In this document: piece after piece, positions 3,797-26,433 of the stretch | Layout of the letters: each line of letters opens with the position of its first letter | Numbering within the stretch: position 1 is the stretch's first letter | Translations under genes and position numbers: made by a program | Notes under the pieces: generated by a model | Databases searched by the model: none | The model's input: only the letters and a program-made list of their open reading frames with translations | Told to the model about the DNA's origin: nothing | Assembly (NCBI GenBank): GCA_046498285.1 | Contig: JAWOBA010000012.1 | Coordinates: 1-48,018, forward strand | Length of the DNA stretch: 48,018 nt | Direction of reading: 5' to 3' | From: Desulfatiglandales bacterium | GTDB lineage: Bacteria; Desulfobacterota; DSM-4660; Desulfatiglandales; B25-G16

Positions 3797-3948
3797 ACAT
3801 TAATTACGAAAAAGGGTTTCTTATCATTTCATTTAGCCATTCAGAAAAAACCTTGACACCCTATCCTACAGCCAAGATTTTATTCCTCTGTTATCATATG
3901 CACTAGTAGAGTGGCTGACTGTCTGAGGAATTGCCGAGATACTAAGTG

Positions 3949-6900
3949 ATGAAAATTCAAAGAAAAATCCTCCTTGCTCTTCTTATCATTGTCCTTATTT
4001 TCCTGACCTCTCTTTGCGGCATTGGACTTTATTACTATTATCATCCTGCTGTTGCAAAGGAATTCATTGAAAAATCGATTGCCCGGTCCACCCACACTTC
4101 ATTTAGAATCGAAAAACTGTCCTACTCCTTAAATCCCTTGAGGATACAGGCAGAGGGGATTATATTTGAACCCAGTAAGGATCATCGCGGTTTCCATCTG
4201 GAGATTCCCAAACTCACAGCGGATATGACCCTGGAAGGATCATTCGGAAGCAAGAGTCTGATCCTCAAAAAACTCAAGGTTGACGGATTTTCCTTCCGTA
4301 TCTCTCATGACATGATTCTGCCGAAAATTGAGGGAAAATCAAAGCACCCATCATTCTTTAGCCACATACTGAAAAAAGCTTTAGCGTTTTTTCTGTTTGG
4401 GGACATACAATTCGAAGCCGCTGAAATTTCAAAGGGCCATATGGTAGCTAAAACCAGAGCCCAGACAGTTCAAATCACTAATATTAATGCCTACCTAAAT
4501 GAAAACCACCTCGTAGAGATTTCCTGCGGGGCATTATTTTTATGGCCTTCCAGAGAAATTCAGTTCAGAGTCCCGCATCTTCTCATTACTACAGATCGCG
4601 GTGTATCTCTTGCCAATCCAAAAATAAGCTGTCTTCTGACAGCAACTGGTTCTGTGTTTCAAAGCCCTGAGATCAATATAAGAGCAGTAGGATTAATGGC
4701 AAAGACCATCTTCAACCGTAAGAATAATAGCCTCACCATAGAACAAGCTGAACTTAATTGTGAGGATGTCCTTCTAAAGCAGCCTGGGGTGAGCATAAGA
4801 AAAATCGAGTCTAAGCTAACACTCATCTACAACCACAATTATAATAAGCTGATCTTTGGGCCCACGGATTTTTCTACAAAGGGCATCATCTTCGACCGGA
4901 CATCTGACACAGAGTCCCTACCTCTGGATTTCAATCTCAAAACACAAGGGTATTTTGACCTTTCAAAATCCGCATTGATCTTTTCCAGTTTTGATCTCGT
5001 TTTGTCCGATATTGGCGGTTTAAAAGGAAACATAGATGCGAGGTTTGGAATTGAAATGGCGTTAATACTTGAACTTTCAAGTGGAAGCTTTTTTCCTCAA
5101 AAAGTGATGCCGTTTATTCCTTCGAAGCTAAGGGAACACTTGAAGTCTGTTAGGCTATCAGGACCTGTCCTTTTGAACGGCAAGGTAAACGGAATAAAGA
5201 AAAACAATTCATGGGATTTGGATATTGACCTGCGGACGCAACTCAAGGAAAACCGGTTTTCCTATGCGGCTGAGTGGATGAGGATGAACAGTGATATAAC
5301 CGGCTACATTCTTGCTCAAGGTAAGCTGCCAGACATAAAAATTTCGCTTAAAATGAACGCTGATCAAATCTTTTTTTCCGGTAAAGGAATCGCGGTAAAA
5401 CCTTTTCAAATGGGTCTTGCAATCTCCGGTAAATATCCGGTTTTTGAGATTGACGAATTAAAAGCGAATGTTCCTCAGGTACGTGTGAAGACAGGGGAAA
5501 AAGATATCCGGATTGGTGATACTCGTGTGAATATTAAAAAAGGTACCATTGATGCAGACAAGAGATTTATTGATATCCCTGAAATTCTCTTTGAATCCTC
5601 CCTTTTACAAAACCTTCTGCTGGCCTTAAGGATTGATAGAAAACGAGTGGCCATTAACATTAAAGGAAAACAAATCAACATCATGGAGTCGGCCCAAGAC
5701 CTTAACTTGGTACCCTCCGGCTGGCAAATCAGTGGAAAAGATTCAATTCAGTTAAGGGCCGCTCAAGAACAAACCAACATCTGGACATTTACTTCTGAGC
5801 TGGGCTTTCAGGACCTTGCATTTGAAAACAAAGACTCCAGCTGCGTGGGAGAAAAAATTTCTCTGAATGCAAAGATTTCTGGAGAAATTGACCTGAACAA
5901 AACTTCCATAGCTACCACGACCGTTCTTGAAATCAATGAGGGAGAAGTCCTGTATGATCGTTTCTATATGGACCTCAACAGGCACGCATTGTCCTGTTAT
6001 TGTGATGCGGCATATGAGCTACCCAAAAAAGTTTTGCAATTATCCACCCTGAAAATCGGGATGAAAGATGTATTAGAGTGTCATATTCATGGGAACATAC
6101 TCAACAAAACCCGGGATCAACGAACCCATCTTTCACTCAGTATCCTTAAGACGCCCTTGAAACCGGTATTTGACCACTTTGTACTGGAACCGTTTCAGAT
6201 GGAAAAACCGATTCTCGCTGACCTTATGATTGGAGGCACCTTTTCCATGGACCTGAAATTAAAAGGCGCCGGGAAAAACTGGACTGCATTTGGCCACCTT
6301 ATGTGGCATGACGGAAAAGTACTATCCTCTGATAATGATTTCTCGTTTCAAGGAATCAATCTTGATCTTCCTGTGTGTTACCGAAGCCAAGAAAATCTAA
6401 AGGTGGCGGAGACGGCAAGTGGAGATCTTTCTGTAAGCTCCATGAACCTTCCAATGCTTCCCAAACAACCACTGAACATCAAAATAACTGCTGGTCCTAA
6501 CGTGCTATCTATAAAATCCCCAACCGTAATCAAGATTCCTGGTGGAAGCGTCCGGGTTGGCTCCGTCTCAGGCAAAGATATATTCAGTAAGCAAGCATCT
6601 GTCCATACCAGCCTTTCAATAAACATAGTTGATATCCGCCCCCTATTATCCGGGATCTGGCAACAATCGGTAAAGGGAAAAATAGATGGAAAGCTGGATT
6701 CCATTACTTTTAAAGGAGGAAATATGACGACTGATGGAAACATCAAAGCTGATGTCTTTGAGGGACAGATGATTTTTTCAGACCTTGGCTCATCAGGCAT
6801 GTTCAGTTCCTCGCCAATCTTTCGCTTGAGCATCCGGATGAATGCCCTGCGATTGGCCGAAATAACGAGCGGAACCCCATTCGGAAAAATTGAAGGGGTG

Positions 6901-7317
6901 CTCAATGGGTATGTAAAAAATTTGGAAATTGCGTATGGCCAACCACAGAAGTTCGATCTCCTATTAGAAACAATACCTACAAAAGGTATTTCTCAAAGGA
7001 TCAGTGTAAAGGCAGTGGAGAATATCTCCAGGATTGGAGGAGGTCAGAGTCCTTTTGTGGGGCTTGCAGGTGGCTTTGCCAGAATTTTTAAGGAATTCCC
7101 CTACAAGAAAATCGGTGTGCGGGCATCTTTAGAAAACGATTTATTCAGGATTAATGGAACGATTAAGGAAGGAGGAAAAGAATACATAATAAAAAAGGGT
7201 GGCTTTTCAGGCATAGATGTTGTAAATCAGAACCCTGATAATCAAGCCAGCTTTAAGGACATGATAAAGAGGATTAAACGCGTTACTGCGGATAAAGGAA
7301 AGCCGGTCATACGGTAG
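3949..7317 (+). CDS. Large AsmA-like/YdbH-domain envelope protein (putative bridge-like lipid transfer protein)
   Basis: About 1120 aa, one N-terminal TM anchor, long amphipathic beta pattern, followed by a YdbL-like lipoprotein as in ydbH-ynbE-ydbL loci; alternative GTG start at 3946. Confidence 0.65.
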   Translation: MKIQRKILLALLIIVLIFLTSLCGIGLYYYYHPAVAKEFIEKSIARSTHTSFRIEKLSYSLNPLRIQAEGIIFEPSKDHRGFHLEIPKLTADMTLEGSFGSKSLILKKLKVDGFSFRISHDMILPKIEGKSKHPSFFSHILKKALAFFLFGDIQFEAAEISKGHMVAKTRAQTVQITNINAYLNENHLVEISCGALFLWPSREIQFRVPHLLITTDRGVSLANPKISCLLTATGSVFQSPEINIRAVGLMAKTIFNRKNNSLTIEQAELNCEDVLLKQPGVSIRKIESKLTLIYNHNYNKLIFGPTDFSTKGIIFDRTSDTESLPLDFNLKTQGYFDLSKSALIFSSFDLVLSDIGGLKGNIDARFGIEMALILELSSGSFFPQKVMPFIPSKLREHLKSVRLSGPVLLNGKVNGIKKNNSWDLDIDLRTQLKENRFSYAAEWMRMNSDITGYILAQGKLPDIKISLKMNADQIFFSGKGIAVKPFQMGLAISGKYPVFEIDELKANVPQVRVKTGEKDIRIGDTRVNIKKGTIDADKRFIDIPEILFESSLLQNLLLALRIDRKRVAINIKGKQINIMESAQDLNLVPSGWQISGKDSIQLRAAQEQTNIWTFTSELGFQDLAFENKDSSCVGEKISLNAKISGEIDLNKTSIATTTVLEINEGEVLYDRFYMDLNRHALSCYCDAAYELPKKVLQLSTLKIGMKDVLECHIHGNILNKTRDQRTHLSLSILKTPLKPVFDHFVLEPFQMEKPILADLMIGGTFSMDLKLKGAGKNWTAFGHLMWHDGKVLSSDNDFSFQGINLDLPVCYRSQENLKVAETASGDLSVSSMNLPMLPKQPLNIKITAGPNVLSIKSPTVIKIPGGSVRVGSVSGKDIFSKQASVHTSLSINIVDIRPLLSGIWQQSVKGKIDGKLDSITFKGGNMTTDGNIKADVFEGQMIFSDLGSSGMFSSSPIFRLSIRMNALRLAEITSGTPFGKIEGVLNGYVKNLEIAYGQPQKFDLLLETIPTKGISQRISVKAVENISRIGGGQSPFVGLAGGFARIFKEFPYKKIGVRASLENDLFRINGTIKEGGKEYIIKKGGFSGIDVVNQNPDNQASFKDMIKRIKRVTADKGKPVIR

Positions 7318-8599: not shown

Positions 8600-9664
8600 T
8601 TAAACCCTTCTACCCTCGCAAAAAATATGGAGCTTAGAGCTTTTGATAACCAGGGAAATGGTTTCACCAGACCTAAAGACGGCCTCTTTTGTCGCCCGGG
8701 CCGTTATAATGGTGGAACCCACCCGGGCATGGATATATTTCTCAGAACCTACATTACTGATCATCTCAACCTCTGCCCTAAGAGCGTTCTGAGATTCATC
8801 AGCAATCTCTATGTCTTCAGGACGGATACCTACTTCCACAATATTACTCTGAAGATTATATGGAATATTTTGGATATTCAATGAGAAATCTTTGCTTTGA
8901 AAGAGTAATTCATTCTTGGCTCGAATTACAGTTCCTTTAAAAATATTCATCGTTGGTGAGCCAATAAAACTGGCAACAAAGGTATCTGCAGGGCGATTAT
9001 AAATCGTTTCAGGCTGGTCAATTTGATGTATTCTCCCCTCTCGCATAATGACCACCTTATCTCCAAGAGTCATTGCTTCCACCTGATCATGAGTTACATA
9101 TAAAATCGTTCCCTGAATCTGTTTATGTAATCTCATGAGTTCCAGGCGAACATTGATCCGCAGCCTGGCATCCAGGTTACTCAATGGCTCATCTAACAAA
9201 AAGAGTTGAGGCCTGCGCACTAAAGCGCGGCCCATGGCTACCCTTTGTCTTTGTCCACCTGACAGTTCTCTTGGCCTTCGTTTTAATAGGTCGTGAATTC
9301 CCAATAGACTCGCTGTCTCAGTAATATTCTCCCTTATAGTATCCTTATCTATGCCACGCATCCGAAGACCGAAGCCAAGATTCTGGGCTACAGTCATATG
9401 AGGATAGAGTGCATAGCTTTGAAAGACCATGGCAACATCCCTATTTCTTGGACTGAGATGGTCAATCGGTTTGTTGTTCACAAAAAGGGAACCCTCATCT
9501 TGCAATGTCAAACCCGCCACAATCTGCAGCAATGTGCTCTTTCCACATCCTGATGGTCCCAGAAGCACACAGAATTCGCCCTCATCTACAGAAAGATTTA
9601 TATTGGAGAGGGCCACCACCTTTCCAAAACGTTTGCTTATTCCCTTGAGAGTTAGTGATGCCAT
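8600..9664 (-). CDS. Carbohydrate ABC transporter ATPase (MalK/UgpC-like)
   Basis: GPSGCGKST, VFQSYALYPH, LSGGQRQR, DEPLSNLD, C-terminal TOBE-like region; start at MASLTL. Confidence 0.93.
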   Translation of the reverse strand: MASLTLKGISKRFGKVVALSNINLSVDEGEFCVLLGPSGCGKSTLLQIVAGLTLQDEGSLFVNNKPIDHLSPRNRDVAMVFQSYALYPHMTVAQNLGFGLRMRGIDKDTIRENITETASLLGIHDLLKRRPRELSGGQRQRVAMGRALVRRPQLFLLDEPLSNLDARLRINVRLELMRLHKQIQGTILYVTHDQVEAMTLGDKVVIMREGRIHQIDQPETIYNRPADTFVASFIGSPTMNIFKGTVIRAKNELLFQSKDFSLNIQNIPYNLQSNIVEVGIRPEDIEIADESQNALRAEVEMISNVGSEKYIHARVGSTIITARATKEAVFRSGETISLVIKSSKLHIFCEGRRV

Positions 9665-9668
9665 TTCC

Positions 9669-10493
9669 TTATCCTTTAATAGCCCCAGCCGATAATCCAG
9701 TAACAATACGCCGTTGAAAAATCAGTACCATAATAATCAAAGGAGCCGTTGTTATAAACGATGCAGCTGCTATTTCTCCCCATGGAATAGTATGCTCTCC
9801 CTGAAACAGGGCAATTCCCACAGGCATTGTCTGCCTGGCAGGATCGGTCATTATCAACAGGGCCAGAAAAAATTCATTCCAGGCATAAATAAAGCTCAGA
9901 ATGGCAGCTGTAAATAGACCTGGAGCCGATAGAGGCACTATCACACGTATTAATGAACCAAGCCTGGTGCAGCCGTCTACCAGGGCTGCCGCCTCCAGCT
10001 CTTCAGGCATTTCTCTGAAAAAAATTGCTAAGATCCAGACAGCCAACGGGAGGGTAAGGGCTACATAGGGCAAAACCAATCCCTGGTAAGTATTCAGCCA
10101 TCCCATAAATCGCAGGAAACGCCAGATAGGTCCTGCAATGGCGATTTGTGGAAACATAGCACATGCAAGAATCCCCATGAGAATAATTTGTGCCCATCGA
10201 CGAGGCAGCCGTGCCAGTGCATACCCTGCTATGGTACCCAGTGATATGGTCACCATGGTAGCAAATCCAGCCACAATAACAGAATTCAATAGGTAATGGA
10301 TGATGTCATACCGTGTAATAGCAGAATAAAAGGAGGTCATGGAAAAAGAAGGTAACCACTGGGGTGGGATAGCAGTTATCTCTGTCTGGTTCTTGAAGGC
10401 CGATAAAACGAACCACAAGAAAGGAGCCAAAGAAAATCCCGCAGCCAGAAAAACACCAACGACAAACAAGATTTTTTTTAAGAATCCTTTCAT
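9669..10493 (-). CDS. Carbohydrate ABC transporter permease (MalG-like)
   Basis: Hydrophobic segments, EAAALVDG loop, WNEF. Confidence 0.92.
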   Translation of the reverse strand: MKGFLKKILFVVGVFLAAGFSLAPFLWFVLSAFKNQTEITAIPPQWLPSFSMTSFYSAITRYDIIHYLLNSVIVAGFATMVTISLGTIAGYALARLPRRWAQIILMGILACAMFPQIAIAGPIWRFLRFMGWLNTYQGLVLPYVALTLPLAVWILAIFFREMPEELEAAALVDGCTRLGSLIRVIVPLSAPGLFTAAILSFIYAWNEFFLALLIMTDPARQTMPVGIALFQGEHTIPWGEIAAASFITTAPLIIMVLIFQRRIVTGLSAGAIKG

Positions 10494-11380
10494 GATACAC
10501 TAGCCTCTAGTAAGCGCCGCCCAACCATGCGCACATATAGAATTGCAAGAACCAGCACAATAATGAAAATACATACAGATATGGCTGACCCATAGCCCAT
10601 CCATCCTTCCACAAACATTTTTTTATAACCGTAAAGCTGGAGGACATTTGTTGCATTTGCTGGTCCTCCTTGAGTCATTACAAAAGCAAGATCGAATACG
10701 CGAAATGCATCAATGGTTCGAAATAGCAGGGCTACAAGGAGCGCAGGTCGGATTAATGGCCATGTAATGTGCAAAAAGCGACGCCAGACTCCCGCACCAT
10801 CCACTCTGGCGGCTTGATAAAGCTCTTCCGGGATAACCTGTAGCCCAGCCAGGATCAGCAAAGCAGCAAAAGATGAGGTCTTCCATATATCTGCAAATAT
10901 AATAGATAAAAATGCAGTTGGGGGCAAGGCAAGCCATGGGATATATTCGGTTGTAGCAGCTCCAAAAATCGCATAATTGATCACGCCGTAGACATCGTTA
11001 AATAAAAACCGCCACATCTGTGCAGAAACTACCGTGGGGATGGCCCATGGGATTAGCACACAGGCCCTTAGCGCACCGCGTCCAGGAAAACGATAGTGGA
11101 TTAGAAGGGCAAGAAAAAGCCCAATCAAAAGTTCAAAAAAGGTAGTGGTACCCACAAAAATGACCGTAATCCAAAAGGAATGCCTCGCAACCGGATCATT
11201 GATGAGTTCCTTATAGTTGTCCAGCCCTATAAAAGGACTTTTGAGTTGTGGAAGCCCAATGATGATCCTATGAAAACTCAGAAAAAATGAATGGACGATA
11301 GGCGCTGCAATGAAAAACAAAAGGACCACTATCACCGGAACAAGCAAAGCCAGGTAAAAGTTTCGGTCCCTTTGAATCAT
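10490..11380 (-). CDS. Carbohydrate ABC transporter permease (MalF-like)
   Basis: FIGLDNY, ELYQAARVDGA, TQGGPANAT. Confidence 0.92.
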   Translation of the reverse strand: MIQRDRNFYLALLVPVIVVLLFFIAAPIVHSFFLSFHRIIIGLPQLKSPFIGLDNYKELINDPVARHSFWITVIFVGTTTFFELLIGLFLALLIHYRFPGRGALRACVLIPWAIPTVVSAQMWRFLFNDVYGVINYAIFGAATTEYIPWLALPPTAFLSIIFADIWKTSSFAALLILAGLQVIPEELYQAARVDGAGVWRRFLHITWPLIRPALLVALLFRTIDAFRVFDLAFVMTQGGPANATNVLQLYGYKKMFVEGWMGYGSAISVCIFIIVLVLAILYVRMVGRRLLEASVS

Positions 11381-12669
11381 TTTTGGGTCATAGCTCCCAG
11401 CTTGAAAAGCTTTTCGACCTTGGTGGATGTCAAAGTAGCCATCTCTGACAGATTAGAGTCTGTTTTTACAATTGCCTGACTAAAGAAACGCTGAAGTTCC
11501 TGGCTGATCATAGGATAAACAGGAGAAAGAGGCCGGGGTCTCGCTTTTTCAAAAGCAGGCAGAAATGCCTTCAAATGTGCTCTCTTTTCTTGTACCTCAT
11601 GGTCTTGGTAAACTGACTTCCTTGTAGGAGCCAGGCTTGCCTGTAATGCAAAAATCTTCTGTGTTTCATGGGAGGTCATAAACTGGATAAAGCGCCATGC
11701 CTCTTCGGGATGTGTGGAATAATGGTTTATGCCAAACTGCCACCCCCCAAGGGTTGAGGCGGAACTATGTCCAGGAAAGGCAGGCAGGTTTCCCACCCCA
11801 ATTTTGCCGGCAACCCTGGATTTTTCAGGGTTGTTAGCCACTGCCCACGCATATGGCCAATTGCGGTGAAAGATGGTCTTGCCTTGAATAAAAAGATCCA
11901 ATGATTCGGGTTCTTCATAATTAATTGCACCTCTGGGTGCAGCCTTGCCGATTATCCTATCACGTACGAATGCAACTGCATCAACAGCAGCAGGTTCATC
12001 CAAAATTGCCTTACCAGTTCCATGGTCGATAACCCCTCCACCATTAGACCATATGAACTCCATCATGTCGCAGACCAACCCCTCATACTGCTTAAACTGG
12101 CCCGAATAAATGTGGAGGCCTGGATCATTTTCGCCTTGCATAATTACCTGCCCCTGGGTGAGCATTTCATCCCATAATGAGGGTGGTTTGAAATTATATT
12201 TTTTTAGGAGATCTTTTCGGTAATAAAAGAGGCCGGCGCTAAGATAGCAGGGCACGCCATATATTCTTTCATTATACGTGTTTGCGGTGATTGGCCCGGG
12301 TAGAAATTTATTTTGTTCTTTGACGGGAAACCTTGACGTGAGGTCTAAAGCCCAGCCAGCATTTGCAAATTCAGGAGGCCATATGACATCCATAAAAAAT
12401 ACATCTACCGATTTATCTCTGTTTTTAAGACGCTGGGCAACAATTGCGTGATATTCGGTGGAAGAATGCGGTCCAACTTGAACCTTGATGTGAATATCCG
12501 GATTTTTCTGGCGGAAATTTTGAATCACTTTATCCCAAACCTCTGGCTGGTTGGGCTTCCATGTCAGAAAAACAACCGTCGTTGGTTCTTCCGCCCATGT
12601 GAATGTAAAGCCGATACAGAGTAAACAACTTATTCCAAAGGCGATAATCATGATCTTTATTGTTTTCAT
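11377..12669 (-). CDS. Carbohydrate ABC substrate-binding protein (trehalose/maltose ThuE-like)
   Basis: Signal peptide; DVIWPPEFA, QYEGL, RNWPYA, LGGW, PRP motifs. Confidence 0.88.
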   Translation of the reverse strand: MKTIKIMIIAFGISCLLCIGFTFTWAEEPTTVVFLTWKPNQPEVWDKVIQNFRQKNPDIHIKVQVGPHSSTEYHAIVAQRLKNRDKSVDVFFMDVIWPPEFANAGWALDLTSRFPVKEQNKFLPGPITANTYNERIYGVPCYLSAGLFYYRKDLLKKYNFKPPSLWDEMLTQGQVIMQGENDPGLHIYSGQFKQYEGLVCDMMEFIWSNGGGVIDHGTGKAILDEPAAVDAVAFVRDRIIGKAAPRGAINYEEPESLDLFIQGKTIFHRNWPYAWAVANNPEKSRVAGKIGVGNLPAFPGHSSASTLGGWQFGINHYSTHPEEAWRFIQFMTSHETQKIFALQASLAPTRKSVYQDHEVQEKRAHLKAFLPAFEKARPRPLSPVYPMISQELQRFFSQAIVKTDSNLSEMATLTSTKVEKLFKLGAMTQK

Positions 12670-12693
12670 CGTAAACCCCCTTTTTAAAAATAC

Positions 12694-13554
12694 TTAGTTT
12701 GCCATTGCAAGCTTGGATTTTATAGTGTCAGATTGTACAGTTATAAGCTCAGATCTGTGCCGATTTACAATTTCTCTATAAAGGATAGGACGTCTGTTTG
12801 GATAAATCGCTTCTTCCGTTCTCCATTTTTGGCTTTCACTGAGATCGATATCAGCCTCGATGATATTCTCTTTAGAACCTGAACTTATTACTATATCCCC
12901 TTGCGGGTTAAAGATGGCACTGTAGCCTGAGAAAAAAGGTCTTGGCCTATTGGCATAAACAACAAAAACCTGGTTATAAATGGCAGCCCCTACGAATCGA
13001 CGCCACATATAATCAACGGGAAAGGAGGCTGGCACAGCCGAGATATTTACGACAACATCCGCACCTTTAAGTGAAAGAACCCTCCATACCTCTGAAAATG
13101 CCGCATCAAAACATATATTTATGCCAATTTTTCCAAATGGAGAATCAAAAACCTTCAGCTCCCTGCCAGGGATAAAATTTTCAGTCCAGTGGACATGCGT
13201 TTTTGTATAACTCTGCGTCAAATCTTTGTCTATGTAAGTTGCGACGTTAAAGTATCGTTCGCCCCACCTTTTTACTTCTCCAATAATTACCCTAGCATCT
13301 AAAGTTCTCACAAATTGATAGAGATCTCTAGATACTGCACTGTACATAACTTTCATTTTTCTGTATAAAAATCCCTCTGGTTTTTCAAGGGAAGGATGAC
13401 CATGCAAGATCAATTCAGGAAAAATGATCAGATCATACGATTTGTAGTTATTGATGATATTTTTTACCCGGTCAATATGTCTCTGGATATTTTCAGAATT
13501 ATAATTTATTTGTGCTATGCATATTTTTCTTATCTTCTTTGTATTTTTTGCCAT
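12694..13554 (-). CDS. Carbon-nitrogen hydrolase (nitrilase superfamily)
   Basis: Glu-Lys-Cys triad in FPEL, YTKTH, NICFD; start at MAKNTKK. Confidence 0.9.
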   Translation of the reverse strand: MAKNTKKIRKICIAQINYNSENIQRHIDRVKNIINNYKSYDLIIFPELILHGHPSLEKPEGFLYRKMKVMYSAVSRDLYQFVRTLDARVIIGEVKRWGERYFNVATYIDKDLTQSYTKTHVHWTENFIPGRELKVFDSPFGKIGINICFDAAFSEVWRVLSLKGADVVVNISAVPASFPVDYMWRRFVGAAIYNQVFVVYANRPRPFFSGYSAIFNPQGDIVISSGSKENIIEADIDLSESQKWRTEEAIYPNRRPILYREIVNRHRSELITVQSDTIKSKLAMAN

Positions 13555-13767
13555 TTTTTTGTAATCCTCGTATACATTGATGCATACAATAAACAAATGA
13601 TAGTATGCTTGAATTATTAGTACAGGAATTTTGGTAGTTATTCAAAATGTTGTGATTTTAGCCCCGCCGTCTGGTAAAATTGATGTTTCTTGAGAGAATT
13701 AGAATCCGGTCAGATACAGATTTTATATATCTATACAAATAGACACAGCTGCCAAAAAAAATCTTAT

Positions 13768-15393
13768 TTAATCGACCAAAAATGGGGGTATATATCTTTT
13801 CTGGATATCTTCTTCTATTCGCTGCACATAAATTCGGGCTGCATCATCGCCATACATTTTCTGGCCATAGCGATATATGCTGCCTTTATCTCTACTGATG
13901 TTTTCATTAACAAGGTCGGGGTCAATATCGCTGATATACTTCTTGGCAATTTTGGCAATAATTTCGTGGATCCCTGAACCAGATTGTGCAGGGCTCTTGG
14001 ATCGGAATGCAATATGAGGAGGAATTCCTAGTTCAACGGCTGCCTGGCGATGAACAGTTTTTCTAAGATCATCGTTTGTATCTTGTATTTTCAGTCTCGG
14101 AGACATCCGCATGGCGGTTTGGATTAAATATTTATCAAGATATGGGGCCCGTAGTTCAATTGAGTGGGCCATAGTAAGCTTGTCTTCCCTTTCAAGGGTA
14201 TCAGTAGAGGAAAGAATCAAATCCTCCCAGAGTCTCTCATGAAGCCCTAAGTAACCAAAATCACTAAGGGTATTTTTATACCATGGGTACCCCGCAAACA
14301 GTTCATCAGCTGCTTGCCCGGTAAACATGACCCTAATATTATCTTCTGCTGCCAATTTGGCTGCCAGATACATGGGAATAGCAACCTCAACCTGCAAAAG
14401 ACCGCCTTCTTCCACATTTTGAATGATCTCAGGCAATATCTGCTCAACCATATCTTCTGTGATGATGGTCGTTTTGAGCTCGAGACCCAGTTCCTCAGCT
14501 ACTGAGTACGCAGCCATAATATCCCCGGACTCTTCAGTCCCAGTGCAGTAGCAAATAATATTTTTCCCCTCGCGCTGTAACAGTTTTGAGATAAAAACAG
14601 AGTCAATACCCCCAGAAAATATAACACCGATCCGGGACATGCTGAGTCCCATTAGTCTTTTTTTGACCGCTTTAATAAGGGCATCCTTGTAAATTTCTAC
14701 AGCCTCACGAAATTCAACAATATCAATCTGGGGAAATTGAAGATGAAATCCTTCGCTCACCTCCAGACCGGAATTATTTATACTGAGGATATCTCCGGGA
14801 TTTAACCTTTTTGGAGTATCCTTACCATTCCATAGGGCCTTTTTTTCTGAAGCAAAATAGGTGATGTTATCATTTATTATGTAATAAAGGGGGGTTTTGC
14901 CTATAGGGTCTCTGGCCACGACAACAGTCTCGCCGTCTGTTACAGCAAGGGAATATGTTCCGTCAAGGAGCCCTATAATCTTTTTTATAGCAGTCAGAAG
15001 ATCACCTTGATAAACCTCCTCCAGTAAATGAATAATTATCTCGCTGTCGCTATTCGTCTTGATTTCATGGTGTTTATACAAAAGGGTTCTTAGTTTTTGA
15101 TAATTATAAATATCTCCGTTATGAATCAACGCCAATTTGTCATCACAAGAAATATAAGGCTGAGTCATTTTTTCACCGCCCATAAGCTTCAGTCTTGAGT
15201 GACCCAATGCGATGTGAGTCTCATTCGAAAGCTCTTCCTTCATTTCATCTATTTCATCAACCTTGACTATCCTTCCATCCAAATATGCGCCATGTGTATC
15301 CGGTCCTCTATGTTCCATTTTTCTTAACATGTCATAGACATCCTTTGACTCGGTCTTACCATTTCGCACAAAGTGTCCGCATATGGTACTCAT
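13768..15393 (-). CDS. Asparagine synthetase B-like ATP-dependent amide ligase with atypical glutaminase domain
   Basis: HRGPD, HNGDIYNY, ARDPIG, PP-loop SGGIDS, GQAADELFAGY, ELRAPYLD; AAGGAG RBS before MSTICGHF. Confidence 0.88.
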   Translation of the reverse strand: MSTICGHFVRNGKTESKDVYDMLRKMEHRGPDTHGAYLDGRIVKVDEIDEMKEELSNETHIALGHSRLKLMGGEKMTQPYISCDDKLALIHNGDIYNYQKLRTLLYKHHEIKTNSDSEIIIHLLEEVYQGDLLTAIKKIIGLLDGTYSLAVTDGETVVVARDPIGKTPLYYIINDNITYFASEKKALWNGKDTPKRLNPGDILSINNSGLEVSEGFHLQFPQIDIVEFREAVEIYKDALIKAVKKRLMGLSMSRIGVIFSGGIDSVFISKLLQREGKNIICYCTGTEESGDIMAAYSVAEELGLELKTTIITEDMVEQILPEIIQNVEEGGLLQVEVAIPMYLAAKLAAEDNIRVMFTGQAADELFAGYPWYKNTLSDFGYLGLHERLWEDLILSSTDTLEREDKLTMAHSIELRAPYLDKYLIQTAMRMSPRLKIQDTNDDLRKTVHRQAAVELGIPPHIAFRSKSPAQSGSGIHEIIAKIAKKYISDIDPDLVNENISRDKGSIYRYGQKMYGDDAARIYVQRIEEDIQKRYIPPFLVD

Positions 15394-15581: not shown

Positions 15582-16934
15582 TCAGAGCCCATAGGCCTTG
15601 ATCTTTTTATGAAGATTGCTTCTCTCCACTCCTATAGCTTCTGCAGTTTTAGAAATATTTCCGCCAAATTGGGACAATTTACGAGCGATAAAGTCTTTTT
15701 CAAATGTCTCTCTGGCTTCTTTAAAGCTGTCAGAAGAAAAAAAGGTGTCCAGTTCTCTATGTTCACTCCTTAATCTATTGTATGGGAAAGGTAGATCTTT
15801 TACATCAATTTCGGTGCCGGGATACATAATAGCCATCCTTTCCACCAGATTCTTAAGCTCCCTGATATTGCCTGGCCAGGTATACTTTTTTAGCGATTCC
15901 AAGGCGTTAGGGCTTAAAAATTTTCGTTCTTTTTTAGTATCAAAAGAAAACTCAGTGAAAAACTCATTCACAAGTTCTTGTATATCATCGGTACGCTCCC
16001 TTAAGGGGGGAACCCTTATAGGTATAACGTTGAGGCGAAAATAGAGATCTTCTCTGAATCTTCCCTTAGCAATCTCTTCTTCAAGATTCTTGTTTGTTGC
16101 TGCAATAACCCGTACATCCACCCTAATAGTTCTATTTCCACCTACACGCTCAAATCTCTGCTCTTGTAAAATACGTAGAACCTTAGACTGAGCCTTTAGA
16201 CTCATGTCACCAATCTCATCTAAAAATAACATTCCATTATTAGCTTGATCAAATTTACCCCTCTTCATAGTCGTAGCACCGGTAAATGAGCCTTTTTCAT
16301 GTCCAAAAAGTTCTGACTCGATTAAATCTTCTGGTATAGCAGCGCAATTAACCTCTATGAAGGGTTTGTCCTTTCTTTTACTTAACCTGTGGATTGCATG
16401 GGCCACTAATTCCTTCCCGGTGCCGTTTTCTCCCACAATAAGCACCCATGAATCAGTTGGTGCAACAATCCCTATCTTCTCTTTTAACTCGGAAATGGGT
16501 TGACTATGCCCGGTTATTTGATGTTTTCGCCTATCTTTTTCTTTGAAAATATCAAGTTCTGTTTCCAGCTTATTGTATTTCAATGCGTTATTTACTGATA
16601 AAAGGACCTTCTCCAGAGAGAGGGGCTTCTCAATAAAATCATGGGCACCTAATTTTGTAGCCTTTACTGCAGTTTCGATAGTACCATGGCCTGAGATCAT
16701 TATCACTTGCGCACTTGGGTATAATTCCCTTATCATCTCCAGCGTTTCCATGCCGTCTATATCCGGCATCCAAATATCCAGCAATATAATATCCGGAATG
16801 GTTTCCCGTATTATATCCAGAGCCTTCAGCCCTCCATCTGCAGTCATAACCTCAAACCCTTCATCAGTAAGAATACCGCGTAAGGATTGAATTATACTTG
16901 GCTCGTCATCTACTATGAGTACTGTATCTGACAT
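15582..16934 (-). CDS. Sigma54-type response regulator (NtrX/NtrC family)
   Basis: Receiver LLDIWMP, AAA+ GENGTGKE, GSFTGA, WPGNIREL, Fis-type HTH. Confidence 0.92.
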   Translation of the reverse strand: MSDTVLIVDDEPSIIQSLRGILTDEGFEVMTADGGLKALDIIRETIPDIILLDIWMPDIDGMETLEMIRELYPSAQVIMISGHGTIETAVKATKLGAHDFIEKPLSLEKVLLSVNNALKYNKLETELDIFKEKDRRKHQITGHSQPISELKEKIGIVAPTDSWVLIVGENGTGKELVAHAIHRLSKRKDKPFIEVNCAAIPEDLIESELFGHEKGSFTGATTMKRGKFDQANNGMLFLDEIGDMSLKAQSKVLRILQEQRFERVGGNRTIRVDVRVIAATNKNLEEEIAKGRFREDLYFRLNVIPIRVPPLRERTDDIQELVNEFFTEFSFDTKKERKFLSPNALESLKKYTWPGNIRELKNLVERMAIMYPGTEIDVKDLPFPYNRLRSEHRELDTFFSSDSFKEARETFEKDFIARKLSQFGGNISKTAEAIGVERSNLHKKIKAYGL

Positions 16935-23630: not shown

Positions 23631-24863
23631 TTAAGTCAAAGATATTATATCTTGTGGCTGATGATCAAGGGCCAAAAGCAAGAGCAAATAACGTTTCAGG
23701 CTTTTCGTGATTAAAAATTCATCTTTTACCCGTTGGTGGCCATTTTCCCCAAGTGTTCTTGCCAGTTCTGGTTGGCTAAGAAGCTTTCGGATCTGCAGGC
23801 TGGCTCCTTCCACCGAATGGACCAGCATCCCGGTGAAACCATGGATGATTTGGGCGGGAATACCGCCTACCGACCCCCCGATCACTGGGCGATATTTCCA
23901 AAGGGCCTCCGAGACAGTCAATGCAAAACCTTCACGTATGGATTTTTGCACAACGATATCTGAGGCACGTTGAAAGGCATTTATCTCTGTGGCAATGGAC
24001 TGAGTTAGAAAGATTATATGGATATCCGGGTTATCTCCGGACTCCTCTTTGACTTTTGTGAGAATAGTCTCCGACTCAGGATCATCAGCAGCCTTGTCTC
24101 CAACAAGGAGAAGCCGGCAATCTACATTTTTTCGAGCCATTTTAAAAGCCTGAATCACCCCCACGGGATCTTTCCATGGATCGTAACGAGAAATCTGAGA
24201 AATGATAGGTTTATCTCTGGGTATTTTATATTTTTCCAGAGTGCTGTTGATATAAGCGACATCCAAATCTTTATTTTTATCAGCCAATGGGTCGATTGCC
24301 GGATAAAATCGATATTGAGGGATAGATAACTCGGGAGAAAAAAGGGGTGAGGAAAAGATAGCTGCATCATATTGCTCTATATATGGCCTCAAAAATTCCC
24401 AAACCTGTCTGTTAGGATTAGACATATCGATGTGGCAGCGCCATACCCATTTATTTTTCCAGTGGGGAGACCGTTGGATTAAGGCAGCAGGTTGAGGATC
24501 GTGAATCACAATGAGGTCTTCATCGAAATTCATTTCACTGCTATTCATCTCGTTATAGGCCAGGTAGGCATTAAAGGCTTTTTCCGGTAAAATTTCTTCA
24601 TTCCCCTGTAAGGCATTGTGGAAGGCCTTGGTGATATCAAAGAAATCAGAACCACCCTTAATCACTTCCCATTTGGTTTCTACGCCAAGCTCATTGAGAA
24701 GTGGAACAATACAGTGGAGCATTTCAGCTACCCCACCTCCCGTGGCTGTGGAGTTCACCATCTTGATGGATCGTTTTCCTACATGCGAGGCAAGGATGTA
24801 AAGCTCTTCAATAATATCTTTACCCACGACTGATTCATAATCAGACAATGTAGAAATATTCAT
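23631..24863 (-). CDS. treT: Trehalose glycosyltransferring synthase TreT-like GT4
   Basis: NSTATGGGVAE, IHDPQP, WRCHID, SRYDPWKDP, EGFALTVSEA. Confidence 0.85.
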   Translation of the reverse strand: MNISTLSDYESVVGKDIIEELYILASHVGKRSIKMVNSTATGGGVAEMLHCIVPLLNELGVETKWEVIKGGSDFFDITKAFHNALQGNEEILPEKAFNAYLAYNEMNSSEMNFDEDLIVIHDPQPAALIQRSPHWKNKWVWRCHIDMSNPNRQVWEFLRPYIEQYDAAIFSSPLFSPELSIPQYRFYPAIDPLADKNKDLDVAYINSTLEKYKIPRDKPIISQISRYDPWKDPVGVIQAFKMARKNVDCRLLLVGDKAADDPESETILTKVKEESGDNPDIHIIFLTQSIATEINAFQRASDIVVQKSIREGFALTVSEALWKYRPVIGGSVGGIPAQIIHGFTGMLVHSVEGASLQIRKLLSQPELARTLGENGHQRVKDEFLITKSLKRYLLLLLALDHQPQDIISLT

Positions 24864-25223
24864 TTATCGCCTTCGAACTTTTTTTCTTACCTTAAGATTG
24901 TCTAACTCATAAAAGCTAATTTATCCCACAAGCAGCATCCTATGAACAACGAACTCGATGAAGTGAAGAAAAGTAAAAATAATCACTGATATCAATAATA
25001 ATACAAACACAACATGCAGATAAAACGATTTCGCTGGAAATCTCACTAAGTTGTAATTTCAAGCAGACCGAGAAATATTATCTTTATAACATACTGAAAA
25101 AACGTGGTTTCTCCCTACAGTCGAAATAACGAATCCAATGAATACGACTTGTATAAGCTTATCATATTTGAACGCCTCAAACGACTGCATTCAAGGCTCT
25201 GTTTTACTTGATTACACAGTGGG

Positions 25224-25886
25224 CTATGTATTGATTTTGTATAGATGTTGGTCGATCAATTTCTCTATCTTTGTCCTTATTGTGTTTAAGGTATAAACCA
25301 TAATGTCGATATCTCTTATGTCTTGTGCTAATTGTTTAAGACCGAGACTCTGCTCTATCCACGTAGAGATATCATCTAAATGAAGTTGATTATACAATCT
25401 AGATTCAATAAAATGAAAATATAGTGAGTCAATACTGATGCTATCAAGCACCTCCCGAAATGATTTCAAATTGTATGCAAATTTATCTGTTAAATAAACG
25501 ATCCTCGTTACATCACAGAGATAAAAAGGCTCATCCGCGTTTTTTTCAAATGCTGATGGATTCTGATTTCTGAAAGCCTTAATAATTTCAACTATGCGCA
25601 ACTTTAAGCTCTCTATGGTATTATATTCAGTCAAATTAATATTCCCCAATTGTTCTGACAGGGCCTCCTCATGAAGATTTCTGGAGATCCAAGCAGCAAA
25701 ATCATTGGTATAAGGAACGTGAATTTCCCGAAACTTTCGTAAGGCAGAAAAGGTATGATAGAAAATTGACGAAAGAGTACAGGAATCAATAAGTTTAAGC
25801 AACGCATCAAGATTACATGCCTTTTTCCCGCTTAGTCTTTCCAAATAAGCACTGGAAGAAAATTGAAATACATACCTTTCAGCCAT
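25224..25886 (-). CDS. DUF5752-like protein (usually adjacent to TreT)
   Basis: Internal duplication SIFYH..NDFAAW / SLYFH..DDISTW; upstream of treT. Confidence 0.7.
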   Translation of the reverse strand: MAERYVFQFSSSAYLERLSGKKACNLDALLKLIDSCTLSSIFYHTFSALRKFREIHVPYTNDFAAWISRNLHEEALSEQLGNINLTEYNTIESLKLRIVEIIKAFRNQNPSAFEKNADEPFYLCDVTRIVYLTDKFAYNLKSFREVLDSISIDSLYFHFIESRLYNQLHLDDISTWIEQSLGLKQLAQDIRDIDIMVYTLNTIRTKIEKLIDQHLYKINT

Positions 25887-26433
25887 TTGCCTCACCTAGC
25901 TATACATATTGTTCTTCAAAAAAAACTATCTTGTATTTAGTTTTTCATGTTGAAACAAGAAAATTACCTTACATAAGGTAGAATATTTTAAAATACAGAT
26001 TATTAATCAAAACTTCAAGCCTTCTTCCCTCTCTCTATTCCTCATATCTTTACCGCCACCTTTTAATACCCTACCCAGAAGGGGATATAAAGGCAAATAC
26101 TGCCAATATTTTGGTGTTTTGTAGCATCCTATTCTTTAATGAATCGTCCCGCTTGGGCGGGAGTAAACATTGTTCCTGCGGGCATTGCCTTCCAATATAT
26201 TTAATTCTTAAAGCGATACATACTCCAAATGCTTATAAATCCCACGTGCATATATCACACACTCTTCCTATCTCAGATATCTATAGGTTTTTCTTTTCTT
26301 TGTTTATAAAATGATATTCAAAAACCCTATCTAAAGAAAAATACTTTTTTTCTCTTTTTTAGACTTTACACAAAATAACATACATTACCATTGCCAAAAT
26401 AATCTACGAAGTGTATGAAGTGCGTGAGTGATT

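Follow-up and report, generated by a model that had tools for sequence, protein, structure and literature searches.

An AsnB-like amidotransferase with serine at its nucleophile position, its partner hydrolase and a sugar importer: a candidate module for amidated glycosyl-glycerate solutes in a Desulfatiglandales bacterium

A 48,018-nucleotide (nt) stretch of DNA from a Desulfatiglandales bacterium (assembly GCA_046498285.1, contig JAWOBA010000012.1, positions 1 to 48,018; below, the window) raises the question of what an AsnB-fold amidotransferase, bearing serine in place of its N-terminal cysteine nucleophile, does beside a nitrilase-superfamily hydrolase and a sugar ATP-binding cassette (ABC) importer. 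Six co-oriented open reading frames (ORFs) follow one another on the minus strand, from 8600 to 15393, where a first-pass annotation made from the sequence alone had put them: the amidotransferase (AsnBL), the C-N hydrolase (CNhyd) and the four genes of the importer (Table 1). That annotation had proposed either that the nitrilase replaces a dead glutaminase domain or that the genes make, break and import an amidated carbohydrate solute. The first proposal is not supported by the evidence set out below. The second, recast so that the amidated solute is a glycosyl-glycerate, is tentatively the leading reading, somewhat short of an even chance.

The core of the unit is formed by its first two genes. 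CNhyd lies directly 3' of AsnBL at all 14 genome loci from the order and adjoins it in 28 of the 30 metagenome loci whose sequence runs on for at least 1 kb downstream, the two exceptions being L158, where a ligase with serine at residue 2 (Ser2) is followed by a gene for an SBP_bac_3 (amino-acid-type) binding protein at 2087-2995 and no hydrolase, and L187, where the N-terminus of the ligase is not in the available sequence. Among 151 genomes sampled from the order, with CNhyd searched at E <= 1e-40, each gene occurs in 17 and both occur together in 16, and the two discordant cases both fall at contig edges (AsnBL truncated where a contig ends, CNhyd where one starts); AsnBL was found in none of the six other genomes of the genus. 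The spacing between the genes, 213 nt in the window, is about 16 nt in L038, L040 and L041, and in a metagenome-assembled genome (MAG) of Ca. Scalinduaceae (L079), where AsnBL is 57% and CNhyd 40% identical, the two share stop and start bases. A scan of the genome contigs with the single AsnBL protein found no relative; a repeat scan with an alignment, run as a single pattern, gave at least two loci of the pair clade. CNhyd itself likely starts at the ATG at 13554, behind GAGGA, and not at the TTG at 13596. Its catalytic set (E47, K118, E125 and C148) is invariant in 13 of 13 orthologues, bearing out the E-K-C triad read at first pass and adding a second Glu, on a predicted alpha-beta-beta-alpha nitrilase fold, and its stop lies 24 nt before the start of the binding-protein gene. 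Its best solved relatives are PH0642 (1j31) and the P. abyssi nitrilase (3ivz), at about 69 bits, and it stays below the cut-off of every nitrilase subfamily model: the top NCBIfam match, N-carbamoylputrescine amidase (AguB), scores 84 bits against 410, and archaeal nitrilase 62 against 500. Judged by gene order and co-occurrence, AsnBL and CNhyd are an obligate, strictly co-inherited two-gene pair.

Compatible-solute genes recur around this pair. A GpgS-like gene of 452-458 amino acids (aa), without a Pfam family and matching the NCBIfam model GpgS_Meth (NF040724, glucosyl-3-phosphoglycerate synthase) at E 1e-61 to 1e-64, below its equivalog cut-off, shares the operon in two gene orders, immediately upstream of AsnBL in L030 and, in L038 and L039, immediately downstream of CNhyd; in L033 a decayed remnant of 83 residues is left upstream of AsnBL, and the gene recurs in the metagenome loci L159 and L189. 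This pair-linked version is confined to three AsnBL carriers among the 151 genomes, and nearly every genome of the order has a paralogue that is 50-55% identical to it. Downstream of this paralogue, one complete genome has an MPGP-family phosphatase (246 bits, cut-off 165), then a second GpgS-like glycosyltransferase and, next, a convergent glycerate 2-kinase-like gene (240 bits, cut-off 550), an arrangement that is, by gene content, the layout of a glycosyl-glycerate pathway. True GpgS and/or TreT adjoin the module in L033, L175, L192, L199 and L231: the true GpgS, 57-59% identical to the copy on contig C83 of this genome, sits beside the ligase in L192, L199 and L231. In L033 the ABC genes are immediately followed, on their own strand, by a TreT homologue, and in L175 and L192 such a homologue stands upstream of the pair. 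Further from the window protein, two Nitrososphaera loci (L081, L082) carry a relative at 41-43% identity after MpgS (TIGR02460, 550 bits, cut-off 351) with an HAD phosphatase before the relative, and an MpgS homologue adjoins the ligase in six metagenome loci from clades at 36-42% identity.

The importer has a binding protein of the SBP_bac_1 family, a pair of BPD_transp_1 permeases and an ATPase of MalK/UgpC type that bears a TOBE domain, which is the composition of a CUT1 (MalEFGK/UgpBAEC) system, and its genes overlap or nearly abut one another. The closest solved relatives of the binding protein are T. maritima MalE3 (6dtq, 278 bits) and the T. litoralis trehalose/maltose-binding protein (1eu8, 272 bits), with the sulfoquinovosyl-glycerol binder SmoF (7nbz, 231 bits) third. 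All four ABC genes follow the pair in eight of the 14 genome loci (nine of 15 if the window is counted) and in 13 of the 20 metagenome loci with enough room, and a sodium:solute symporter homologue takes the place of the ABC genes elsewhere (L167, Ca. Scalinduaceae MAG). A trehalose/maltose-type ABC importer is, on this tally, a frequent third part of the module.

The identity of the partner hydrolase is not constant across the wider family. In a clade 44-50% identical to the window protein, with the N-terminus MCGICGF, no CN-hydrolase is present and an isochorismatase-family hydrolase lies directly after the ligase (PF00857 in three of three tested, E 1e-41 to 1e-43). By BLAST, an isochorismatase-fold homologue holds that position in nine loci and, at 40% identity, in one other (L226), with one more copy upstream in a Nitrososphaera locus; a sodium:solute symporter homologue then follows in seven sister-clade loci. 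Both the nitrilase and the isochorismatase families comprise Cys-dependent amidohydrolases that free ammonia from small amides or ureido groups. Because ligases that retain their own Cys also have a partner of this kind, the partner more likely hydrolyses the amide of the pathway than replaces the glutaminase.

Taken as a make/break/import module, the unit would work as follows. AsnBL would adenylate a glycosyl-glycerate-type solute (glucosyl- or mannosyl-glycerate) at its carboxylate and then amidate it with ammonia tunnelled from its own N-terminal nucleophile (Ntn) glutaminase domain, yielding a neutral glycosyl-glyceramide, and CNhyd would return the amide to acid and ammonia. Such an amide/acid cycle would let the cell switch between a charged and a neutral form of the solute, or recover nitrogen, and the importer would take in an alpha-glycoside solute, whether trehalose, the glycosyl-glycerate or its amide, or more than one of these. 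Ser2 would be either a weaker but working Ntn nucleophile or the mark of an enzyme turned ammonia-dependent. The unit as a whole would be an accessory, horizontally spread compatible-solute module. What the first-pass annotation had suggested along these lines gains substantive support from comparison, through the linkage to solute genes and the swapped amidohydrolase partner, the chemistry itself being predicted. It is possible, although we regard it as rather doubtful, that this is the first gene set described for amide-type glycoside osmolytes, uniting a glycosyl-glycerate amidotransferase, a dedicated glyceramide amidase drawn independently from two unrelated folds and an importer, together with a natural serine tolerated or used at the Ntn Cys1 position.

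Several points weigh against this assignment. The functional roles proposed all draw on gene neighbourhood, and 43-50% identity to the MpgS-linked enzymes is no guarantee of the same substrate. A synthetase and a hydrolase of one amide in one operon would make a futile cycle unless they were regulated post-translationally. No MpgS was found in this genome, its separate GpgS-type gene lies on another contig (C83) and scores 373 bits against a cut-off of 700, and the pair-linked GpgS-like protein is far under the NCBIfam equivalog cut-off, which makes its sugar and acceptor presumptive. Six of the 14 genome loci and six of the 20 metagenome loci have the pair with neither a transporter nor a glycosyl-glycerate gene nearby, the latter six lacking any transporter homologue, and the neighbours of transporter-less loci are cell-envelope genes. 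AsnBL retains, as D363 and E364, the residues D367 and E368 with which human asparagine synthetase (ASNS) binds the amino group of aspartate. Finally, the importer may merely take up trehalose and be unrelated to the substrate of the ligase, because its binding protein is most like trehalose/maltose binders and a TreT gene is nearby.

Cell-envelope neighbours also support the most probable alternative, that the pair acts on another carboxylate or amide, either a cell-envelope precursor or a different amide or ureido solute, and that the sugar genes are island neighbours. AsnB-family enzymes amidate the diaminopimelate of peptidoglycan, both hydrolase folds include ureido-hydrolases, and the best NCBIfam match of CNhyd, though far below its cut-off, is N-carbamoylputrescine amidase. 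In the transporter-less loci, LysM-Amidase_3 (L037, L189), SLT-LysM (L040) and LpxR (L038) genes are found upstream, and an lpxB cluster lies upstream in the window. These envelope neighbours vary by locus, however, and no single one of them is as tightly recurrent as the solute genes, among which the GpgS-like genes are linked to the pair in two independent gene orders, and MpgS, MPGP, GpgS, TreT and solute transporters recur across three ligase clades. We hold this alternative to be unlikely.

A less probable alternative again, which carries forward the first proposal of the earlier annotation, is a two-subunit amidotransferase in which the hydrolase, of either fold, feeds ammonia from glutamine or from an imported amide to the PP-loop synthetase, leaving the Ntn nucleophile dispensable. 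In glutamine-dependent NadE, a nitrilase domain supplies ammonia to the synthetase in this manner. The strict adjacency and co-occurrence of AsnBL and its hydrolase agree with such an arrangement, as do the narrow or overlapping gene junctions, and NadE gives the precedent of a nitrilase-type glutaminase (PMC3376133).

The ATG of AsnBL is preceded at 5 nt by AAAGGAG, and all 14 related loci keep a start with the same GGAG spacing; since this ATG, properly spaced from a ribosome-binding site, is conserved, the start is taken to be correct. No alternative in-frame start exposes a Cys; such exposure had been named at first pass as a result that would refute the idea. The protein begins MSTICGHF and carries the motifs GHSRLKLMG, NGDIYN and, in its PP-loop, SGGIDS. 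In an AlphaFold model of AsnBL (predicted local distance difference test, pLDDT, mostly 70-94 in the N-domain and 68 for the whole model), residue 2 is matched with residue 1 of GlmS (1xff, Z 24.3), of E. coli and B. subtilis PurF (1ecb, 1ao0), of E. coli AsnB (1ct9) and of human ASNS (6gq3), the alignment output consisting of the ends of aligned ranges and not of residue-by-residue pairs. It follows from this alignment of model residue 2 with residue 1 of the solved enzymes that Ser2 falls at the Cys1 position. Across the wider family the N-terminal consensus is M-C-[GST]-I-x-G, and residue 5 may be C, M, V or A. On the combined basis of the conserved start, the family consensus and the model, Ser2 occupies the Cys1 nucleophile position, as had been read at first pass.

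An alternative start, or a propeptide, exposing Cys5 as in B. subtilis PurF was considered and set aside on three grounds: the conserved, correctly spaced ATG, the C, M, V or A found at position 5 in relatives, and the alignment of the model from residue 2. Cys5 is a family-specific residue and not a hidden nucleophile, and a match to the PurF model TIGR01134 beginning at AsnBL residue 5 was dismissed as a local coincidence. In the 13 hydrolase-linked sequences that were aligned, Cys5 and His7 do not vary, although they do so in remoter relatives, Cys5 being present in 119 of 119 close relatives, and a C281-Y-C283 motif of the synthetase domain is likewise invariant in the hydrolase-linked clade (13 aligned). 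These residues might mark a metal or redox site.

The history of residue 2 was followed in 119 full-length AsnBL relatives that are 63-99% identical. The residue is C in 66 of them, S in 52 and G in one, and on a FastTree tree whose root was set at the most distant member, Fitch parsimony yields a Cys root and four changes; Cys2 is likewise found in 10 of the 14 genome loci and 27 of the 32 metagenome loci, and Ser2 is written with two distinct codons, AGT and TCT. As reconstructed on this tree, Cys2 is ancestral and Ser2 derived, having arisen at least four times. A 65%-identical lineage with the N-terminus MSAICGHF (L042, L206) has a further Ser2, which is probably an independent change. The residues of the glutamine pocket have been kept throughout, Ser2 forms included: R67 in 118 of the 119 relatives, and N92, G93 and D116 in all. 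A study of human ASNS (PMC6748925) lists the glutamine-pocket and oxyanion residues of that enzyme as Arg-48, Asn-74, Gly-75, Glu-76 plus Asp-96. Position 94 is Glu in 117 of the 119 and Asp in two, the window protein and its near-twin; of the two altered glutaminase motifs reported at first pass, both of which read as described, NGDIYN is therefore private to the window lineage, and the remaining relatives retain NGEIYN. Divergence of the N-domain relative to that of the C-domain stands at 1.08 among Ser2 forms and at 1.37 among Cys2 forms; computed from pairs that are not independent, these ratios support no more than that Ser2 forms give no sign of relaxed constraint on the N-domain. Ser2 would appear, on this conservation, to be a derived and recurrent variant and not a sign of decay.

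Set against these results, the two-subunit arrangement can claim that Cys2 was lost at least four times within the hydrolase-linked clade (by AGT and TCT codons and one Gly) and that NGE became NGD in the window lineage. The ancestral Cys2 is nonetheless retained by most relatives and loci, and the hydrolase follows these Cys2 forms too, wherever downstream sequence is present; a hydrolase partner is also present in sister clades whose ligases have kept the MCGI start intact; the glutamine pocket persists in Ser2 forms; and in L158 a Ser2 ligase has no downstream hydrolase at all. Searches for fused AsnBL-hydrolase proteins found none, the longer proteins yielding one unrelated CN_hydrolase-GNAT, which is weak evidence, and a predicted AsnBL-CNhyd complex (matched 13-row alignments) scored 0.00 in two runs made without controls, a value that carries no weight either way. 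We consider it improbable, for these reasons, that the nitrilase stands in for a dead glutaminase. The first-pass annotation had named, as signs against its own ideas, homologues that mostly retain Cys2 or that are unlinked from the hydrolase and ABC genes: the former was found, in the proportion given above, and the latter did not hold for the hydrolase.

A distinct matter is whether AsnBL makes asparagine, as its public annotation implies. The SGEGSDE motif of AsnB and ASNS reads TGQAADE in AsnBL (HMMER alignments to 1CT9 and 6GQ3), which places Gln360 at the position of human ASNS Glu-364, presumably E348 in E. coli AsnB; all 119 close relatives and all 15 distant ones carry this Gln. The TTIR segment of E. 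coli AsnB (TTVR in human ASNS), which we take to be part of the aspartate site, is LQVE. In human ASNS, the E364A and E364Q variants are described as inactive with aspartate, ATP and ammonium (PMC6748925). An apparent replacement of Asp-384 in the HMMER alignment to 1ct9 was not upheld, the alignment to human ASNS retaining the invariant Asp (D398). The overall fold matches 1ct9 (Z 18.7, 113 bits) and 6gq3 (Z 17.3, 107 bits), and the PP-loop motif S260-G-G-I-D-S265 is invariant in the AsnBL family, intact as first read. Relatives carry the public name "asparagine synthase (glutamine-hydrolysing)" because TIGR01536 exceeds its cut-off (316 bits against 267), yet the match covers only profile positions 4-379 of 517; the NF006949 AsnB model scores 275 bits against 499. 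On these substitutions AsnBL is unlikely to be an asparagine synthetase, and the public name is probably wrong for a large clade. That it is an ordinary glutamine-dependent asparagine synthetase and a chance neighbour of the hydrolase and sugar transporter, as the TIGR01536 score and public naming would have it, is most improbable in view of the Gln at the essential Glu position, the replaced TTIR segment, the partial profile coverage and the patchy distribution, absent from the six congeners searched and shared with the hydrolase in 16 genomes.

Other AsnB-type genes occur in the same genome, which has a canonical MCGI form elsewhere. A gene of this kind (C177:4503-6452, minus strand; locus L001) begins MCGIIGF, encodes about 640 aa with a full-length PF00733 match and sits in a cluster with an apparent NAD-dependent sugar epimerase and glycosyltransferases; its protein is presumably closer to a WbpS-like polysaccharide amidotransferase than to a housekeeping AsnB. 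A second AsnB-like paralogue that lacks the Cys (C181:1505-3016, minus strand; L002/L005) has a MAGIAGI start, with Ala at the nucleophile position, in an open frame of about 493 aa with the same split Asn_synthase match, adjoining a 258-aa ORF.

Compared with known systems, AsnBL shares with AsnB (1CT9) and human ASNS (6GQ3) the pairing of an Ntn class II glutaminase with a PP-loop synthetase, the SGGxDS loop and the glutamine-pocket Arg, Asn-Gly-Glu/Asp and Asp; it differs in the Ser at Cys1 of the window protein, in the family-wide Gln for the essential Glu and LQVE for TTIR, and in being an accessory, hydrolase-paired gene. The module resembles NadE in joining a PP-loop enzyme for ATP-dependent amidation to a hydrolase of the nitrilase superfamily, the NadE model NF010588 being a weak match of CNhyd (61 bits), whereas AsnBL retains its own conserved Ntn domain, its partner is a separate protein and, in sister clades, that partner is an isochorismatase-fold enzyme. 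In the AsnO-Ngg pathway to N-acetylglutaminylglutamine amide, an AsnB-family amidotransferase makes a neutral amide osmolyte; the corresponding model, TIGR03104, is a weak match of AsnBL (167 bits, cut-off 570), and the partner genes differ, with no Ngg-type GNAT/ATP-grasp partner here. The importer has the four-gene CUT1 layout of the T. litoralis (TMBP, 1EU8) and T. maritima (MalE3, 6DTQ) systems, to whose binding proteins its own scores 272-278 bits, but is here co-oriented 24 nt behind an amidotransferase/amidohydrolase pair. As in T. litoralis, where treT presumably sits inside the transporter cluster, TreT adjoins the transporter in L033, and in the window it lies 8 kb off. A further parallel is with the MpgS-MpgP and GpgS-GpgP pathways and with the mannosylglycerate/mannosylglyceramide osmoadaptation of Rhodothermus marinus: relatives of the ligase directly adjoin MpgS, GpgS-type synthases and MPGP-family phosphatases. 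With salt, R. marinus, the only organism credited with mannosylglyceramide in the review consulted, is reported to change over from anionic mannosylglycerate to the neutral mannosylglyceramide (PMC1224877). Such a shift needs an ATP-dependent amidation of the carboxylate; the present genome differs in that no MpgS was found, and a glyceramide is no more than a predicted product of it. A literature search, partial in its coverage, found no paper on the gene for the mannosylglycerate to mannosylglyceramide step, and the accessible part of a study of disaccharides in alkane-oxidising consortia (PMC13597711) holds nothing on an AsnBL/CNhyd module.

Neighbours of the ligase at some other loci add some observations. 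In the Scalinduaceae MAG (L079:14056-16803) a second AsnB-like paralogue at 34% identity is followed by a Methyltransf_25 protein, and in an ANME-1 locus (L080:4498-6771) the genes upstream of the ligase include one for a similar methyltransferase and one for a binding protein that is OsmF-like, of glycine-betaine type, which may be another osmolyte link. In two sister-clade loci (L199:3803-5909 and L231:9691-11802) the ligase is followed by two GFO/IDH/MocA oxidoreductases, with a symporter homologue too in L231, and in both loci then by a convergent HAD-type gene and GpgS (Pfam checked in L231), a set that hints at an oxidative glycoside-catabolic branch.

The coordinates of the features in the window are collected in Table 1. 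For the ABC ATPase the ATG at 9664 is the likely start, and not the TTG at 9706 given by the ORF finder, NF008653 aligning from residue 15. The treT gene reported about 8 kb away at first pass was recovered as a TreT homologue scoring below the NF041139 cut-off; it lies outside the operon but shares its solute theme. Its DUF5752 (PF19027) neighbour has a counterpart beside TreT in L033 (905-2823), the two occurring together in the window at 23631-25895 on the minus strand, and may be a conserved TreT partner. A sigma-54 response regulator gene lies directly upstream of AsnBL, and a consensus search found no sigma-54 promoter-like site between the two or upstream of CNhyd, consensus matches across the window being at chance level (24 found, 22 expected). 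Scans of the window for sigma-70 promoters and terminators gave results at or below shuffle level, and neither Rfam families nor tRNAs were found in it. An ORF of 1123 aa on the plus strand at 3946-7317 matched neither a Pfam nor an NCBIfam model under the thresholds applied.

Table 1. Features of the window with their positions, strand and profile matches
Feature	Position	Strand	Matches and remarks
ABC ATPase, UgpC/MalK type, TOBE domain	8600..9664	-	NF008653, 449 bits vs cut-off 432; PF00005, PF08402, PF17912
ABC permease 2, MalG/UgpE-like	9669..10493	-	PF00528 (BPD_transp_1); NF008231 MalG, 115 bits
ABC permease 1, UgpA/MalF-like	10490..11380	-	PF00528 (BPD_transp_1); NF007852 UgpA, 131 bits
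Binding protein, CUT1 sugar ABC importer, trehalose/maltose-binding type	11377..12669	-	PF01547 (SBP_bac_1), 156 bits
CNhyd, nitrilase-superfamily C-N hydrolase, 286 aa	12694..13554	-	PF00795, 102 bits vs cut-off 23
AsnBL, AsnB-fold ATP-dependent amidotransferase, 541 aa	13768..15393	-	PF00733 (Asn_synthase); PF13537, PF13522 (GATase_6/7)
AsnBL domains: Ntn glutaminase (Ser at Cys1 position) and PP-loop synthetase (Gln at catalytic-Glu position)	13768..15393	-	
NtrX/NtrC-type sigma-54 response regulator, directly upstream of AsnBL	15582..16934	-	PF00158, PF00072
TreT-like trehalose glycosyltransferring synthase, outside the operon	23631..24863	-	NF041139, 391 bits, below cut-off 775
DUF5752-like gene adjoining TreT	25224..25895	-	28% identity to the PF19027 protein beside TreT in L033

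If the reading as a module for an amidated glycosyl-glycerate is true, cells would toggle a solute between anionic and neutral forms by means of a ligase, an amidase and an importer. The AsnBL family, with its amidohydrolase partner and importers, is then a candidate for the mannosylglycerate to mannosylglyceramide enzyme, a step not assigned in the part of the literature found, and its distribution suggests that amide solutes may reach beyond Rhodothermus to sulfate reducers, anammox bacteria, ANME-1 and soil Thaumarchaeota. The recurrent change from Cys to Ser at the Ntn nucleophile, under continued constraint, is a natural experiment in how class II amidotransferases work chemically.

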